Positions 2,336-33,609 of a stretch of DNA of 36,472 nucleotides are shown one piece after another. Under the pieces are notes generated by a model. It saw only the letters and a list, made by a program, of their open reading frames with translations, was not told where the DNA came from and searched no databases. The DNA is from Macrostomum lignano (Eukaryota). Both the position numbers and the translations under genes were made by a program. The first letter of the stretch is position 1. Each line of letters begins with the position of its first letter. The stretch covers positions 1 to 36,472 of the forward strand of contig NIVC01004740.1 in the NCBI GenBank assembly GCA_002269645.1. Reading direction: 5' to 3'.

Positions 2336-2409
2336 CAAGTAACACGATAACGGAAAGTTCCGAGCGACACTATGAATATAGAAATGGCTAAACGATAAAA
2401 GAAACTCAC

Positions 2410-3092
2410 TCATTTCCAGCCTTGGCCGAATCGCCCTTGGCAGGCGCAGCCTCTTCTCCTTCATCGTCTCCAGCCTCCTCCCCATCCTGCTGCTCTCCAT
2501 TTTCGTCTCCCTCTTCATCTTCGTCGCTCTCCAGATTCGCTTTGGACTCGGTGGCGGCCGCCGGGGCGCCCGAATCTGGCGTGGCCTCGTCCGTTTTCTT
2601 CCGTCTGGCCGCCTGCGACGCCTGCGAAGCCGCCGGGGCCGGCGAGCCGCGGCAGCAGTAGACGATAAGCAGAACGGCAGGCAAGGCGATCACCAAGAGC
2701 AGCACCGCCCAGATCCACGGCCGGTCCTTCGTAGCATCGCGAACGGCGTCCACCACCGACTGGGCGCCAGGGTCGGCCAGTCGCTCGGCCTCCCGCTTCA
2801 CCGTCCAGGTCTGCTCGGCGAAATCGTCGGCCAGCGACTTGCGATCGACTATTAGCAGATTGTCGAAAACGACGCCGTCGTTCATCGACCAGAGCTCGAA
2901 GCCGATGGCGCCGATCGGGGCGAAGCGCCAGGGCTCTTTGTCCTCGAAATAGTCGGGATTGGGGATCACCCGCGGCTTCCAGATGCCCTTGTAGGCCGGT
3001 TGTCAATCATCGGGGCCGACCACTTGCCCTTGTACTTCGGATTCTTCACCTTCGGCCGGGTCCACGGGCCGCAGCCTGGCGCCTCCTTGCAC
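2410..3092 (-). CDS. CANX: Calnexin exon 3 (end of P-domain, luminal C-terminal part, TM helix, acidic cytosolic tail); one -1 frameshift near 2998
   Basis: Acceptor aaatccag|G at 3093/3092; [31 protein letters not shown] then a frame change to [17 protein letters not shown]...IGFELWSM...TM segment...YCC; donor GA|GTGAGT at 2410/2409. Confidence 0.9.
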
Positions 3093-3114
3093 CTGGATTT
3101 TGCAGAACGATTTC

Positions 3115-3950
3115 GGGATGATTATTGAAATGATTTCCAGATGATTATTAAAATGATTTCCAAATGATTATTGTGATGATTTCTAGATGATTATTGGAAT
3201 GTTTTCCGAATGATTGTTGGAATGATTTCAAGGTGATTATTAGAATGATTTCAAGGTGATTATTGGAAATATTTCAAGGTGATTATTGGAATGTTTTCCG
3301 AATGATTGTTGGAATGATTTCAAGGTGATTATTAGAATGATTTCAAGGTGATTATTGGAATGTTTTCCGAATGATTGTTGGAATGATTTCAAGGTGATTA
3401 TTGGAATGATTTCAAGGTGATTATTGGAATGATTTCAAGGTGATTATTGGAATGATTTCCAGATGATTATTAAAATTATTTCCAGATGATTCTTAAAATT
3501 ATTTCCAGATTATTATTAAAATGATTTCCAGATTATTGTTGAAATGATTTTAAGGTGATTATTGGAATGATTTCCAGATGATCATTGAAATGAGTTCCAG
3601 ATGATTATTGGAATGACAATCCAGACAATCACAGAAATGATTTCCAGACAATCACAGAAATGATTTCCAGACAATCACAGGAATGATTTCCAGACAATCA
3701 CAGAAATGATTTCCAGACAATCACAGGAATGATTTCCAGACAATCACAGGAATGATTTCCAGACAATCACAGAAATGATTTCCAGACAATCACAGGAATG
3801 ATTTCCAGACAATCACAGGAATGATTTCCAGACAATCACAGAAATGATTTCCAGACAATCACAGGAATGATTTCCAGACAATCACAGAAATGATTTCCAG
3901 ACAATCACAGGAATGATTTCCAGACAATCACTGAAATAGTTTGCAGATGA
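3115..3950. repeat. Intronic minisatellite, 23-bp units GATTATTGGAATGATTTCAAGGT grading into GGAATGATTTCCAGACAATCACA
   Basis: Tandem units read directly; fills calnexin intron 2 (3093-3993). Confidence 0.9.
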
Positions 3951-3993
3951 TTATTGGAATGCTTCAGAATAAAAAAAACAGACAAAGCCTCAC

Positions 3994-4538
3994 TTGGGAT
4001 TGTCAACCTGCGCCGGCTCCCAGGACCCGTCCATATCCTCGTCCCAGTCCTTGGGCTTCTCGGCCTTGGGATCTGGGACGGTCAGCGGCTCGTCAACAAG
4101 CCAGCCCTGCGGCATGACGGCCTCGGCGTCTTCGATAAACTCCGGCTGAGTCTCGTCCCAGTCGTCCGGCTTAACGGCTTTGGGATCGGGGATTTTCTCG
4201 CGCTCGTCCCAGTCGGCCGGCTTCTTGTCGTTAGGATCGTCAATCTCTTTAGGCGGGTTCACCGGCGGCTGCATGTCCTCTAGGAGACTGCCGCTGTTCA
4301 CCAGGCTCCTGTCAACGTACACCTCGAAGCTATTGTCCGAGTTCAGCACCAGGGTGTACAGGTGAGTTCGCTTGTCGTTAAAGTACGAATCCAAATCAGC
4401 TTTGGGCTTTTTGGCGTGCTTCTCTTCGATTTTGCCAGATTTCGGATTCTTGTGCCGCAGAATGAAGTGCAGCTTATGGTCCATGCCGCACTTGTCAGGC
4501 CCGAACATGATGGTGTACGGAGTCTTGTCGTTGAACTC
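3994..4538 (-). CDS. CANX: Calnexin exon 2 (lectin domain and P-domain repeats)
   Basis: Acceptor ccccgcag|GAG; [48 protein letters not shown]; donor AA|GTGAGG at 3994/3993. Confidence 0.95.
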
Positions 4539-4605
4539 CTGCGGGGGTTGAGGGTGGGGCACGTTCGGCTTCGGGTGTGCAGTGGCATCGCATTGGGTTG
4601 CTGCG

Positions 4606-5995
4606 TCCCTCAGTGACAGCCGCTACCCTCCCTCAGTGTCTGCCGCTACCCTCCCTCAGTGTCTGCCGCTACCCTCCCTCAGTGTCTGCCGCTACCCTCC
4701 CTCAGTGTCTGCCGCTACCCTCCCTCAGTGTCTGCCGCTACCCTCCCTCAGTGTCTGCCGCTACCCTCCCTCAGTGTCTGCCGCTACCCTCCCTCAGTGA
4801 CAGCCGCTACCCCGCCCTCAGTGACAGCCGCTACCTTCCCTCAGTGACAGCCGCTACCCTCCCTCAGTGACAGCCGCTACCCCCCCCTCAGTGGCAGCCG
4901 CTACCTTCCCTCAGTGACAGCCGCTACCCTCCCCCAGTGACAGCCGCTACCCTCCCTCAGTGTCTGCCGCTACCCTCCCTCAGTGTCTGCCGCTACCCTC
5001 CCTCAGTGACAGCCGCTACCCCCCCCTCAGTGACAGCCGCTACCTTCCCTCAGTGACAGCCGCTACCCTCCCCAGTGACAGCCGCTACCCTCCCTCAGTG
5101 TCTGCCGCTACCCTCCCTCAGTGACAGCCGCTACCCCCCCTCAGTGACAGCCGCTACCCTCCCTCAGTGACAGCCGCTACCCTCCCCCAGTGACAGCCGC
5201 TACCCTCCCTCAGTGTCTGCCGCTACCCTCCCTCAGTGTCTGCCGCTACCCTCCCTCAGTGTCTGCCGCTACCCTCCCTCAGTGTCTGCCGCTACCCTCC
5301 CTCAGTGTCTGCCGCTACCCTCCCTCAGTGTCTGCCGCTACCCTCCCTCAGTGTCTGCCGCTACCCTCCCTCAGTGTCTGCCGCTACCCTCCCTCAGTGT
5401 CTGCCGCTACCCTCCCTCAGTGTCTGCCGCTACCCTCCCTCAGTGTCTGCCGCTACCCTCCCTCAGTGACAGCCGCTACCCCGCCCTCAGTGACAGCCGC
5501 TACCTTCCCTCAGTGACAGCCGCTACCCTCCCTCAGTGACAGCCGCTACCCTCCCTCAGTGACAGCCGCTACCCCCCCCCTCAGTGACAGCCGCTACCTT
5601 CCCTCAGTGACAGCCGCTACCCTCCCCAGTGACAGCCGCTACCCTCCCTCAGTGTCTGCCGCTACCCTCCCTCAGTGACAGCCGCTACCCCCCCCTCAGT
5701 GACAGCCGCTACCCTCCCTCAGTGACAGCCGCTACCCTCCCCCAGTGACAGCCGCTACCCTCCCTCAGTGTCTGCCGCTACCCTCCCTCAGTGTCTGCCG
5801 CTACCCTCCCTCAGTGTCTGCCGCTACCCTCCCTCAGTGTCTGCCGCTACCCTCCCTCAGTGTCTGCCGCTACCCTCCCTCAGTGTCTGCCGCTACCCTC
5901 CCTCAGTGACAGCCGCTACCCCCCCTCAGTGGCAGCCGCTACCTTCCCTCAGTGACAGCCGCTACCCTCCCTCAGTGACAGCCGCTACCCTCCTT
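4606..5995. repeat. Intronic minisatellite, 23-bp unit CCCTCCCTCAGTG(TCT/ACA)GCCGCTA
   Basis: Roughly 60 tandem units with two alternating variants; fills calnexin intron 1 (4539-6048). Confidence 0.95.
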
Positions 5996-6048
5996 AGTGA
6001 CAACATAGAAACAAGCCACAAAAGAGCACTGAGTGAATGCTAGCCAAC

Positions 6049-6591
6049 CTTCAGATCCATCCCGGGCCCGTCAGTCAGCAGTTTAACATAGGCTCCGCCG
6101 CAATCCATGCCGTTCTGAAACTTCACTTCGTATTGCATAACAAACTGCTTGCCGGGCTGGTCAAAGGCGAAAGGCTTAGCCAACTTAGCGGATACGGCGT
6201 GGTGTTTGGCTTTAGATTTGAGCACCAAAGCAAAGTCGGCATCAATGGCGCTGGACTCGGGCACTTCAACGGACCAGAAGCCGTCGTACTTGGACAAATC
6301 CGAGTCCACGCCTTCCTTCTTAGACTTGGACAGCACCAGCTGTTCAGCCAGATTCGATGGCGCAGTAAAGAATTGAGCATAATAGGCACCAGCTGGAACC
6401 TTTGGCGGCGTGAACACCGGCTTAGCAGGCGGGGCTGCCGCGTCTACACCGGCTTTATCGTCGGCCGGGTCGTCGTCGTCGGAGACGTCTGCTTCAGCGT
6501 CTGGTGATCTGGCATCCTCTGCACCAGCTGCCAATTCAGTGGCCAGCAGTAGTAGCAGGGCTAGGAGCAGCAATTTCATTCTGTGAGGCAT
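6049..6591 (-). CDS. CANX: Calnexin exon 1 (signal peptide and N-terminal lectin domain)
   Basis: Signal peptide MKLLLLALLLLLATELAAG; KYDGFWSVE, KAKHHAVSAKL, QYEVKFQNGMDCGGAYVKLL; donor AAG|GTTGGC at 6049/6048. Start ATG at 6591 or 6579 is uncertain. Confidence 0.93.
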
Positions 6592-29852: not shown

Positions 29853-29875
29853 GAGTGAGTGAGTGAGTGAGTGAG
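29853..29875. repeat. (GAGT)n microsatellite abutting the Polinton terminus
   Basis: Read directly. Confidence 0.8.
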
Positions 29876-30135
29876 AGTAGTATAGAAAAAGACGCTTCTA
29901 GACCCAGAGCACTTTTTTAATGACCGTTTTAAGGGTCTAGAGGGGGGACACGGGGGGTAAATAAAAAAACACATCTAATCACCATTAACACAAAAAGACA
30001 TCTAAAAAACCCCTAACAATAAAAATCACTTCCAAACACTCCCCAACACCCCCCTCGCGTCCCCCCTCTTAAGACCTTACAAACGGCCATTAAAATAAGG
30101 TCTGATCTAGAAGCGTCTTTTTCTATACTACTACT
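29876..30135. repeat. Terminal ~260-bp inverted-repeat (fold-back) structure
   Basis: 27-bp perfect IR AGTAGTATAGAAAAAGACGCTTCTAGA (29876-29902) vs 30106-30132; imperfect pairing extends to ~80 bp per arm. Confidence 0.85.
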
Positions 30136-30755: not shown

Positions 30756-31903
30756 TTAGTTCGCAGACATTATCTGGTTCTCATAAAAAGAACCCAATAT
30801 TTCTTCACCGTCCTTATCAGCAATTATATAGGTTGTAGGATTGGTATTTAAAACTTTACTGATAGTAAATTTCTCACTTATCTTCCAATATCCTTTTCTT
30901 CCTTTTTCAAACTTATCTTTCCATTTATAGATATAAACAGAATCACCAACCTTAAAAGATTTCTTTTTATTTTTTTCAAATTTTCCAAAAGTAACTTTAA
31001 CTTTTTCAGGATTGTTATAAGCTTGTTGAGGAGTCATCTTTATCGCCGAATGATATGAATTGTTATAATCTTTTACAACGTCTGGTAATATTTTTACCCA
31101 CTTTTGGTTTCCATTAAGACTAAACTGAAACCATAATTTCTTACCTAAAGTTCGATTAAATCTTTCTATTAATGCGTTTTTACTCTCTCCATAAATAGAA
31201 TAAATTTTATTAATATACTCCCCATTCGCGTCTTTTTCCTTTCTTTTCCTTTTTCAAAATGATACAATTTATACATATGAGGATTGTAAAATTCTTTTCC
31301 TTCATCAACACACAATCTTTCGCTTTTTTCTCCAAGATTTCTAAAAGCAGCAGCAACCTCCTCTCCTTTTTTGGATTTTAAAGGAACAGCCCACGCGTAT
31401 CGAGTAAAACCATCTAGTATGGTTAAGATATATTTATATCCTCTTTCATTTGGCATCGACATTAAATCAGCATACCAAATTTCATTCTTTTTGAAGTTCA
31501 TGATTTTTCTATAAAATTTAGGTTTTCGGTATTCTTTATGAAGAACCTTTGCCTCATCAAAACTTAGCCCACTACCACTTAACAACAAACACTCAACACA
31601 ATTATTTCCATGTTGGTTGTAATTAATTCCCAAACCAAATTTAACTTTAGACTGTAAGATTTTTTTAACCATCCATCTAGTTAATTTTTGACCTACCGAT
31701 AATCCCTGTAGGTTATCTAATCCTTGAATCATTTTTCTATCGGCTTCATGTTTTAATCTTAATGCTTCCTCGGGTGAGTTCTTATCAGCATCTCTGTATG
31801 CTAAGTCATGATAGTATGCTAACCAATCAATACCGTTAATGGGAATTGAATCGGCTTTTGGAGTATTATCAGGATTTAATCTCAAATCTAACCTAGTCCC
31901 GGG
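30756..31903 (-). CDS. PLA2-integrase gene, exon 2: PLA2 catalytic part fused to a Polinton rve integrase; -1 frameshift near 31240
   Basis: PGTRLDLRL...PINGIDWLAYYHDLAY...KHEADRKM (parvovirus-type PLA2); then AKVLHKEYRK...IWYADL...YKYILTILDGFTRYAWAVPLKSK...VDEGKEFYN; shifted frame ...IERFNRTL...YNNSYHSAIKMTP...FKVGDSV...GSFYENQI. All three DDE residues are visible. Confidence 0.9.
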
Positions 31904-32236
31904 TAGTTTACCCTCAATCTTTCGAATGAGGCTGGAGCACACCTTAAGCGGCGATAATTACCGCCCATCTCCGTCTGCTCTCTGAACCTTCTCCTTATAT
32001 TTAAAATACTTAGGAGCTTGGCTGCGCATTGCCACCGTGTCTTCAAGCTTTTTACCATCGAACCATAGGTTCGCGTGCAAAGCACGATTGGGAAGAGGAG
32101 TTACCTCTGTTCCTTCAAAAGATTTCTCAATTGAAGTGGTACTTGAAGCTGTATGACGGGTTTCACGCAATTTGGAGATGTCGCCACAAATAGTGACTAG
32201 CAAGGACATTGCCTTCCTCACTCAGGCCACGGGTTA
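31904..32236 (-). ncRNA. Group I intron, subgroup IC1-like, 333 nt, no ORF, terminal nucleotide A
   Basis: P (AAAUUGCGUGAAA), Q (AAUGCGCAGC), R (GUUCAGAGAGCAGA) and S (AAGGUGUGCUCC) in order; P1 with a U.G splice-site pair; P3 CAUCUCC/GGAGAUG; P4; P5abc; P6; P7 GAGCA/UGCUC; P8; P9 with GAAA loop; P9.0; P10. Removal restores NFTG|PGT in frame. Confidence 0.92.
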
Positions 32237-32362
32237 ACCTGTGAAGTTCATTGATGGTAGGTGTAGTTCCCCTGTATATTTACCAGTAGTAAAGATTGGT
32301 GGTAAGCTTGTTAATCCTTTTTGAACATCTAACAATCCTCCTTCAAACACTATTTGGTTCAT
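32237..32362 (-). CDS. PLA2-integrase gene, exon 1 (42 aa, ...GELHLPSMNFTG)
   Basis: TAAAAATG start at 32362; ELHLPxxNFTG is the N-terminal half of the parvovirus-type PLA2 Ca2+-binding-loop motif; 126 nt, phase 0 with exon 2. Confidence 0.85.
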
Positions 32363-32911
32363 TTTTAATAGCCTTAAAAATACATGAAAGCACCAATTGT
32401 TTTGCAAACTCTTCAATGGTTGGTTGTTTAACTTTTTTATAGTTATTATCTACGCTAGTTAAGTATCTTTTATTTGTCCAATGTTCAGACTTTTTCATCT
32501 GATCTTCATCTTTGTAACTAAACGAAGAAGCGGGAATGAAATGATCAATATCTAAATTTCCAGTATAATCTTTTGAAACATAATATTTTCTTGTGAAATT
32601 TAACCAATCAAAAAAGAATTCTTTTGTGCAATCAAGATATGAGATATAGTCCTTGTCATTAAAATTTTTCAACGCCCAATTTATTCTATTTCTAATTAAA
32701 ACAATATGTTTGTAATTATCATCATTGTGATACTTGTTTTTCTATATTCATTAAATTTATCTTTATTGTTTTTCATCCAAATAGTAGATGAGGTATTATG
32801 ACAAGATCGACAATCATTTCTAAATTTTTTTGAATCATTTCTCCAAAAATAAAATTCTTTCGTCATTGGTTTTTCTTGTTTACACTTAATACAAATCTTT
32901 TTAGGTTCCAT
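32343..32911 (-). CDS. Free-standing HNH (beta-beta-alpha-metal)-type endonuclease with N-terminal CxxC...CxxC; -1 frameshift at 32737-32741
   Basis: ICIKCKQEK...DCRSCH; restoring one A gives RKNKYHNDDNYKHIVLIRNRINWALKN, joining ...YLDCTKEFF...DIDHFIPASSF...HWTNKRYLTSVDNNYKK. Resembles the HNH family common in large DNA viruses (recalled, not searched). Confidence 0.75.
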
Positions 32912-32937: not shown

Positions 32938-33609
32938 TTAAACTCCAGTATGTCCAGCAGCTTTCGCAGCAGCTAAAACAAGTTTTCGCGGTGTTTTAAA
33001 TCCATCACCAACAGCTGGTTTGTTATTTATAGAATTAACAATCCATTTATACAAGCTGGTATTTTTAACAGCTCCTCCTAACTCATCATAAAAAATTCTA
33101 GCACTTATTAATTCATCCCTAGTATATAAATCAGGGTTAAACTTTACCCTAGGGTTCATAACAATATTATATGCTCCACCCAATTCTGTATATAGTTCAT
33201 TCCGATTTTTATCAACTCCACCAATTCGATAATTATTATTACCTAAATCTGTAACAGCAATACTAGTTGGTGCAGGTCTCGGATATTGTTCAACTCCACC
33301 CCTAATCTCTTCACGTCTAATTTCTGCAACTCTCAATTGAGCTTGATCAACATCATAAGCAGGCGGCTCATCCAAAATTTCATCCTCTTTTGGCTCGGTA
33401 TTTTTAGCAATTTTTTCCAGAAGGTCTTTATCTGTTTTTTCTAGTTCACTAATTTTCCCCGTAATAGGATTAACAAAAGGAGCAGCAAATCTTTCACCAG
33501 CTAATTGTATTCCTAACTTTCTTTTTTGTAAATTTCTAACAAAATCAGAATATCTTTGCTTCTCTTTATAAATCGCTAACTCTCCATCAACGTCCATAAA
33601 TTGACTCAT
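32938..33609 (-). CDS. Hypothetical Polinton protein, 223 aa
   Basis: Intact ORF; coiled-coil-like N-terminus; C-terminal ...LVLAAAKAAGHTGV is reminiscent of conserved small Polinton ORFs (by memory). Confidence 0.6.
   Translation of the reverse strand: MSQFMDVDGELAIYKEKQRYSDFVRNLQKRKLGIQLAGERFAAPFVNPITGKISELEKTDKDLLEKIAKNTEPKEDEILDEPPAYDVDQAQLRVAEIRREEIRGGVEQYPRPAPTSIAVTDLGNNNYRIGGVDKNRNELYTELGGAYNIVMNPRVKFNPDLYTRDELISARIFYDELGGAVKNTSLYKWIVNSINNKPAVGDGFKTPRKLVLAAAKAAGHTGV

Follow-up and report, generated by a model that had tools for sequence, protein, structure and literature searches.

Collaborative homing of a group I intron and a separately encoded nuclease is described, in the accessible text of the source, for cyanophage S-PM2, where the endonuclease F-CphI is the partner of the ORF-less intron of psbA (PMC6083498). 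For Polintons, the available parts of two sources suggest collaborative homing of helicases and replicases, not of introns (PMC11296320, 10.64898/2026.10.13.758929). As for nuclear group I introns, the accessible text of a 2013 review placed them only in rRNA genes of microorganisms (PMC3679873). Here, we analysed a stretch of DNA of 36,472 nucleotides (the window), one contig of the 764-Mb assembly of the eukaryote Macrostomum lignano, in which an ORF-less group I intron splits a protein gene of an integrated element. More than 150 copies of such introns were found in this gene, most of those in the window's family ending in A. An earlier note on this DNA had proposed that an HNH endonuclease gene lying directly upstream cuts the intron-less allele and spreads together with the intron. 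We consider it fairly probable that the intron is part of a system centred on another enzyme, an Eco47II/EcoO109I-like nuclease (hereafter RE) serving in homing or in competition, and not on the HNH protein.

The split PLA2-integrase gene and its intron

The left part of the window carries host genes, e.g., a calnexin gene at positions 2406-6591, which lies amid long tandem repeats and whose best PDB matches are two calnexins (E 2e-34 and 1e-30). An AT-rich element with terminal inverted repeats starts near 29,870, as judged by a shift in composition. The repeats at its end are nested, 27 nt of them being perfect and 43 nt matching at 74%. We assign the element to the Polintons since its PLA2-like domain is fused to an rve integrase, and such PLA2-like genes are given as typical of Polintons and adintoviruses in the accessible text of PMC8502044. 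The features of the window that concern us are as follows.

29876..30132, no strand: element end, with a perfect 27-nt inverted repeat at the border with host DNA
30756..31903, minus strand: exon 2 of the PLA2-integrase gene, PLA2-like domain (PF08398, E 0.01) followed by rve integrase (PF00665, E 8e-8), first codon Pro
31904..32236, minus strand: ORF-less group I intron of 333 nt with terminal A, splitting GGT/CC (GGNCC); RF00028, 64.6 bits
31958..32209, minus strand: frame of 83 aa within the intron, matching the C-terminal tails of intron-encoded Eco47II-like nucleases (five homologue tails, E <= 3e-7)
32237..32362, minus strand: exon 1, 42 codons, the last being the Gly codon GGT
32343..32911, minus strand: HNH-type endonuclease gene in a nuclease slot with exchangeable content, encoding an N-terminal zinc ribbon and a C-terminal D-H/N/N site
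32938..33609, minus strand: ORF of 223 aa, the conserved flank upstream of the nuclease slot (from the ORF list and comparison of copies)

The PLA2-like domain and the integrase (window 30756-32362) form a single ORF, open over 431-432 aa in intron-less copies, and splicing would therefore gate both activities. The same fusion is found in an independent metagenome contig, L177. In the window copy, the frame of exon 2 is broken near 31170-31250. The intron is inserted between the invariant Gly and Pro codons of the PLA2 motif G-P-G-T, and these codons (GGN CCN) always spell GGNCC. The junction given in the earlier note, ACAGGT/CCCGGG, proved to be correct, and hence the terminal base of the intron is A, not G.

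Compared with RF00028, the intron scores 64.6 bits (threshold 50, E 5e-16); a scan of the whole window with Rfam at the gathering cut-off did not report it. From the R and S motifs we take its core to be IC1-like. Among 52 distinct intron cores, P3, P4, P6a, P7 and P8 each pair in 49-52, two-sided changes are seen in P3, P7, P8 and P9.0, and one position assigned to P9 fails to pair. P1 is present in the predicted fold, and in the window as well as in nearly all copies read the exon ends in GGT and the intron begins with TAACCCGTGGCCTG. The terminal G looked for in a group I intron is absent from the window intron, as it is from most of the 83 copies read (A in 61 and, with indels, in 2 more; G in 20). 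Sequencing error was considered as the source of the terminal A and rejected, since A is the majority state and its position is fixed by P9.0. The terminal base covaries with the first codon of exon 2, A being found with CCC in 58 and G with CCG in 18 of the 83 copies. It may be that the terminal A makes splicing slower in most copies; splicing in vivo of an intron without a terminal G is on record in the available text of PMC6545197. No spliced joint across the intron was found in the contigs of four public runs, none of which is on record as RNA.

The earlier note had called the intron ORF-less, and this was confirmed: no nuclease gene lies inside its 333 nt, only the frame of 83 aa, which, on the strength of its matches to nuclease tails, we read as the putative trace of a lost nuclease gene.

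A second intron type (B) occurs at the same 5' site, in about 25 copies by coordinates, 5 of which were read (L090, L091, L170, L171, L176). It has peripheral parts in common with the first type (A) but another core, presumably IE-like. A search with RF00028 gave no detection of intron B, and its 3' splicing may lead to A-G-L instead of P-G.

The Eco47II-like nuclease and the absence of GGNCC

In about a quarter of the copies of the window's family, the slot directly upstream of the split gene is occupied by RE, an alternative gene of 167 aa. The match of RE to Pfam RE_Eco47II (PF09553) has an E of 4e-4, below the curated cut-off, and its Atlas neighbours are of the Eco47II family at 0.94. The structure model (pLDDT 89) aligns with EcoO109I at Z 9.7 (rmsd 3.6, 166 aligned), which is the only Z of at least 8 among 48,161 chains, while Foldseek lists a DdmD domain first (E 2.4e-4), then EcoO109I (E 3e-4) and AvaII (E 8e-4). 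Searches of PDB sequences with the profiles of RE and of the HNH protein gave nothing significant. From these matches, RE is predicted to be a PD-(D/E)xK nuclease of the Eco47II/EcoO109I group. It is under purifying selection (pN/pS 0.28) and open in 14 of 16 copies. Eco47II cuts GGNCC, EcoO109I cuts RGGNCCY and AvaII cuts GGWCC, and we infer that the target of RE is GGNCC. These three are classed as type II enzymes in the accessible text of two sources (PMC3424549, PMC2441816). Of 12 genome-wide matches to C5 methyltransferase (PF00145), none lies on an element contig, as compared by eye with about half of the element read. Relatives of RE were found neither in viral contigs nor in GenBank phages; a metagenome scan gave 2 loci, 1 of them informative.

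Elsewhere, RE is encoded within the intron itself. In a sister family, whose PLA2 is ~60% identical, a homologous intron is present at the same F-x-G/P-G-T site; this intron is 880-894 nt long, ends in G, scores 82.6-88.9 bits with Rfam and contains the RE gene, flanked by a 15-nt inverted repeat. The family gave 52 exon-2 matches: 25 with the intron and RE inside it, 1 with a long intron and no RE match, 24 with neither intron nor RE, and 2 unclassed. Sequence was read for 5 of the copies with and 5 of those without the intron. In contig L177 the intron is at the same site, encloses RE, ends in G and has an Rfam score of 80.6 bits. The layout of an intron-encoded homing endonuclease, with an ORF in a peripheral loop that is present with the intron and absent without it, is therefore seen in the sister family and in L177. 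Database homologues point the same way, as 5 of 9 continue into a translated intron core that matches the window intron (E <= 3e-7); the other 4 comprise one weak match, one without a match and two too short to test. Since RE resides inside same-site introns in the sister family, in L177 and in database homologues, the window intron most likely descended from an intron that encoded RE. In a tree of 15 RE proteins the free-standing copies form one clade among the intron-encoded ones; the root and deep forks of this tree are unsettled, and thus we claim no direction from it. In the sister family exon 1 was also observed twice, facing inward, 16-21 kb apart (G000 C2167, C620, C1101, C2232), so that the terminal repeat probably includes exon 1.

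Apart from the intron-less junction, the predicted target is missing from the part of the element covered. A scan of 319,800 bases in 52 copies gave 10 GGNCC sites, 9 of them in a single copy that extends into host DNA and the tenth at an intron-less junction. In a set of 448,033 bases from 56 copies, restricted to positions common to at least 10 copies (~8.5 kb per element) by a mask that drops the intron-less junction, GGNCC was found 0 times, where 4.08 would be expected in each copy. Of all 1,024 5-mers, only the four GGNCC words are absent from this set, and the next rarest pattern has a ratio of 0.49. Host flanks contain 183 sites versus 222 expected (98,829 bases). The single PLA2 relative in viral contigs, L179, is intron-less and was used as a control, and there GGNCC occurs 9 times versus 7.5 expected. 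In 9,716 bases of sister-family genes 4 sites were found versus 13.2 expected, and these are the four intron-less junctions; altogether, the junction reads GGNCC in 8 of 8 intron-less alleles read in both families. The 56 copies are relatives and not independent trials, a single copy giving ~0.02 by Poisson. Since the copies are related and the half of the element on the polymerase side is unread, we treat the absence as one strong evolutionary observation, not as 56. Gly-Pro dipeptides are nearly absent from the ORFs of the element (0.02 per copy versus 3.3 expected; L139 ORFs, 56 copies), as predicted by a purge of GGNCC. A GGC junction as an immune allele was rejected as a general rule, since two intron-less alleles read GGT/CC and the four GGNCC words are alike absent. 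In the sister family, 24 intron-less copies persist with a GGCCC junction.

In the reading that we favour, RE would cut GGNCC, and the element would have been purged of this word except where the invariant Gly-Pro pair forces one. An intron placed between the Gly and Pro codons would remove the last self site, which leaves the intron-bearing DNA without a site, and splicing would restore the protein. An intron-less competitor would be cut at the junction and repaired from an intron-bearing copy, by which the intron would spread. In the window's family, RE would have been lost from the intron, and the free upstream gene would serve the ORF-less introns in cis or in trans; such a free RE directly upstream would represent a collaborative or trans-homing layout. 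The HNH gene would then be a second selfish cassette, entering and leaving the same slot by exchange, with the HNH-bearing copies keeping the intron as immunity. Cleavage by RE, splicing and homing are steps that we infer. To a wider claim we give about an even chance, namely that this is a restriction system free of a methylase, in which a solo GGNCC cutter, sites purged bar the Gly-Pro one and an intron as antidote would turn a 5-bp word into a unique homing target, with the intron-encoded, the free-standing and the nuclease-replaced stage of this intron in one genome, in a protein gene of an element integrated in the nucleus.

Host DNA would likewise be cut by an enzyme with the target GGNCC, thus RE may be selected for degrading the host's DNA or for excluding viruses. 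RE could then be a weapon used in the lytic phase against host DNA or unrelated co-infecting viruses, with the intron kept for removing the last self site and homing a by-product or absent. This alternative overlaps our favoured reading, the main difference being what selects for RE. In foreign DNA, a site specified by four bases occurs much too often to suit a classical homing enzyme, as the counts in the host flanks illustrate (183 in 98,829 bases), viral restriction systems act in virus exclusion according to the accessible text of 10.1101/2019.12.21.884833, and the methyltransferase matches (12 genome-wide, compared by eye) include none on element contigs. However, RE lies inside the intron in two lineages, looped out by a 15-nt inverted repeat in the manner typical of homing, and it is absent from 24 of 24 intron-less sister copies. 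We regard the weapon alternative as unlikely.

The HNH gene and the exchangeable slot

The gene layout reported in the earlier note holds: the HNH gene runs from an ATG at 32911 to a TGA at 32345-32343 and overlaps by 20 nt the PLA2 gene, whose ATG is at 32362. The distance of ~107 bp to the intron is also exact, with 107 nt between the HNH stop and the 5' splice site. The gene is free-standing and adjacent to the intron, as in collaborative homing. The window copy is frameshifted near 32736-32741, which leaves frames of 71 aa and 132 aa; this break is absent from most contigs of the four public runs, and a full open frame with the D-H...N...N motif is present in 52 of 65 HNH slots of the copies read. 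Homology bears out the proposed HNH-type identity, namely through PHROGs, conserved residues and viral fold matches. The N-terminal part matches endonuclease VII/HNH in PHROGs (E 4e-6). Over 103 homologues H124, N147 and K159 are invariant and D123 and N156 exceed 90%, so that the catalytic His, the central Asn and the final Asn/His of an HNH site are found in D123 H124, N147 and N156, respectively. The best viral fold matches are Mimivirus L246 (E 7e-11) and an 'intron encoded endonuclease' of Bodo saltans virus (E 5e-9), and those to PDB folds are weak (best Z 5.8). A Pfam search of the protein itself gave no HNH match, and only 3 of the 103 homologues gave one. The protein does not fall in the DHHRN family of F-CphI and Endo VII: it has DHFIP, an invariant central Asn and cysteines only in the N-terminal domain, whereas the available text of PMC6083498 gives that family a DHDH motif between CX2-4C and CX2C and no central Asn. 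It is under purifying selection (pN/pS 0.48). In one further locus (L102:5471-5938), an acidic ORF of 155 aa lies in the slot beside an HNH remnant; it has 6 matches in the genome, some of which form an alternative end to the upstream ORF, and belongs to no Pfam family.

A search of the genome with exon 2 gave 513 candidates and 150 scored matches, 139 of these close. Slot classes were taken from coordinates against searches with exon 1, HNH and RE; 86 distinct copies and 16 further loci were read as sequence, while the remaining classes rest on coordinates. Among the 139 close copies, intron A occurs with HNH in 78 and with RE in 28, intron B with HNH in 17 and with RE in 8, and the intron is missing from 3 copies with HNH and from 0 with RE, one copy counted as HNH containing just a remnant. 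The other 5 were unclassed by coordinates, and one of them (C13) has intron A and RE by sequence. The HNH gene is present in 95 of 132 intron-bearing copies and absent from the other 37, where RE takes the same slot. Intron-less alleles are rare (3 of 135), and all three carry HNH, open in C3967 and C3031 and frameshifted in C1051, the latter two being near-identical. Free-standing RE is accompanied by the intron in 37 of 37 copies and occurs in 0 of 3 intron-less alleles, which is not significant (Fisher p 0.56).

Linkage was followed in 51 de-duplicated HNH copies, in which pairwise distances of HNH and intron correlate at a Spearman coefficient of 0.14-0.27, while the 3' part of the intron tracks the flank beyond HNH at 0.57. 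Two copies, C573 with RE and C2328a with HNH, are nearly identical on both flanks and represent a clean cassette swap. Junction-proximal exon haplotypes are common to several slot types and none is specific to an HNH subtype, and no sign of HNH-specific immunity or co-conversion was found in the 66 nt before and the 39 nt after the intron. Intron alleles are shared between RE copies and HNH copies, thus the linkage of the free RE to the intron is not tight either.

The co-occurrence of HNH and intron among relatives, which the earlier note proposed to check, was not found, as HNH sits on 3 of 3 intron-less alleles and is missing from 37 of 132 intron-bearing copies. Since it is also weakly linked to the intron, HNH appears to be present regardless of intron status, although the intron-less sample is small. 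The layout of this element family agrees with the more general idea that an ORF-less intron can be served by a free-standing nuclease; HNH is probably not the partner, and the Eco47II-like RE is the likelier one. That the intron-less PLA2 allele is cut by HNH, which would spread along with the ORF-less intron as a successor to the lost intron-encoded nuclease, is in our estimate distinctly unlikely. It would agree with the 107 nt to the insertion site, the 95 of 132 intron-bearing copies, the intron-encoded endonuclease of Bodo saltans virus among the fold relatives, the purifying selection (0.48) on a gene open in 52 of 65 slots, and the scarcity of intron-less alleles in the HNH-bearing family (3 of 135), which is not seen in the sister family without HNH (24 of 50). 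It is opposed by the presence of HNH on all 3 intron-less alleles (open in 2), by its weak linkage to intron alleles, by exon haplotypes close to the junction that recur with several HNH subtypes and with RE, and by the GGNCC purge, which points to RE, not HNH. HNH is probably an independent selfish cassette. Finally, that the intron and both nucleases are passengers in a generic hot spot, with a decaying intron (terminal A) and GGNCC missing by chance or through an old purge, would suit the lack of a spliced joint in the contigs of the four runs (none on record as RNA) and the many frameshifted, non-independent copies, but is very improbable given that the absent 5-mers are the very four that the enzyme family of RE predicts and no others, that the intron helices are conserved with covariation, that both nucleases are under purifying selection and that L177 independently has the same layout.

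Comparison with known systems

If our favoured reading is true, homing can be carried out by an ordinary restriction enzyme with a short site, genome-wide avoidance replacing a long target and the intron standing in for a methyltransferase. It would imply that Polintons replicate together within cells, where they recombine and compete, a point relevant to whether they are active viruses. How nucleases pass between the free-standing and the intron-encoded state is debated, and with all stages in one genome this can be tested directly here. The literature that we searched describes neither an Eco47II-like intron nuclease nor a site purge combined with protection by an intron; subscription journals lay mostly outside this search, as did supplements, among them those of PMC12220804, which list introns that could overlap.

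By analogy, the system would work like intron homing, in part like the collaborative homing of F-CphI and like the Bodo saltans virus introns, which comprise parental and offspring forms. As with F-CphI in S-PM2, as far as the accessible text describes it, a free-standing nuclease adjoins an intron-bearing gene and the intron would protect self and gain mobility. Unlike there, the adjacent HNH gene does not track the intron, and the likelier partner is the restriction-fold RE, which is found both inside introns and free upstream; the carrier is no cyanophage but a eukaryotic Polinton known from sequence alone. In Bodo saltans virus, the available text of PMC5871332 likewise describes nuclease-bearing and nuclease-less versions of one intron and proposes interference between related viruses, and our HNH protein is a fold relative of one of its intron endonucleases. 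The enzymes there are, however, of the HNH and GIY-YIG types, the genes are those of RNA polymerase, the carrier is a cytoplasmic giant virus, and that text describes no site purge. Introns of about 310-380 nt matching RF00028 are also reported for protist Polinton-like viruses in the accessible part of PMC12220804, but there the interrupted frame is a short one upstream of the capsid gene, the hosts are cryptophytes, rhizarians and chlorophytes, and no nuclease partner is identified in that part.

On the side of the enzyme, I-Ssp6803I similarly represents the use of the PD-(D/E)xK restriction fold by a mobile group I intron, according to the accessible text of PMC3424549. Its target is long (17-bp profile), whereas for RE a 5-bp word seems to suffice, having become unique through genome-wide avoidance. 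RE has the fold and motif of Eco47II (PF09553), EcoO109I and AvaII and shares with them the predicted GG-N-CC core. Unlike these, it has 167 aa, it is intron-encoded or solo with no linked C5 methyltransferase found, and it is the loss of sites together with the intron that seems to protect the element.
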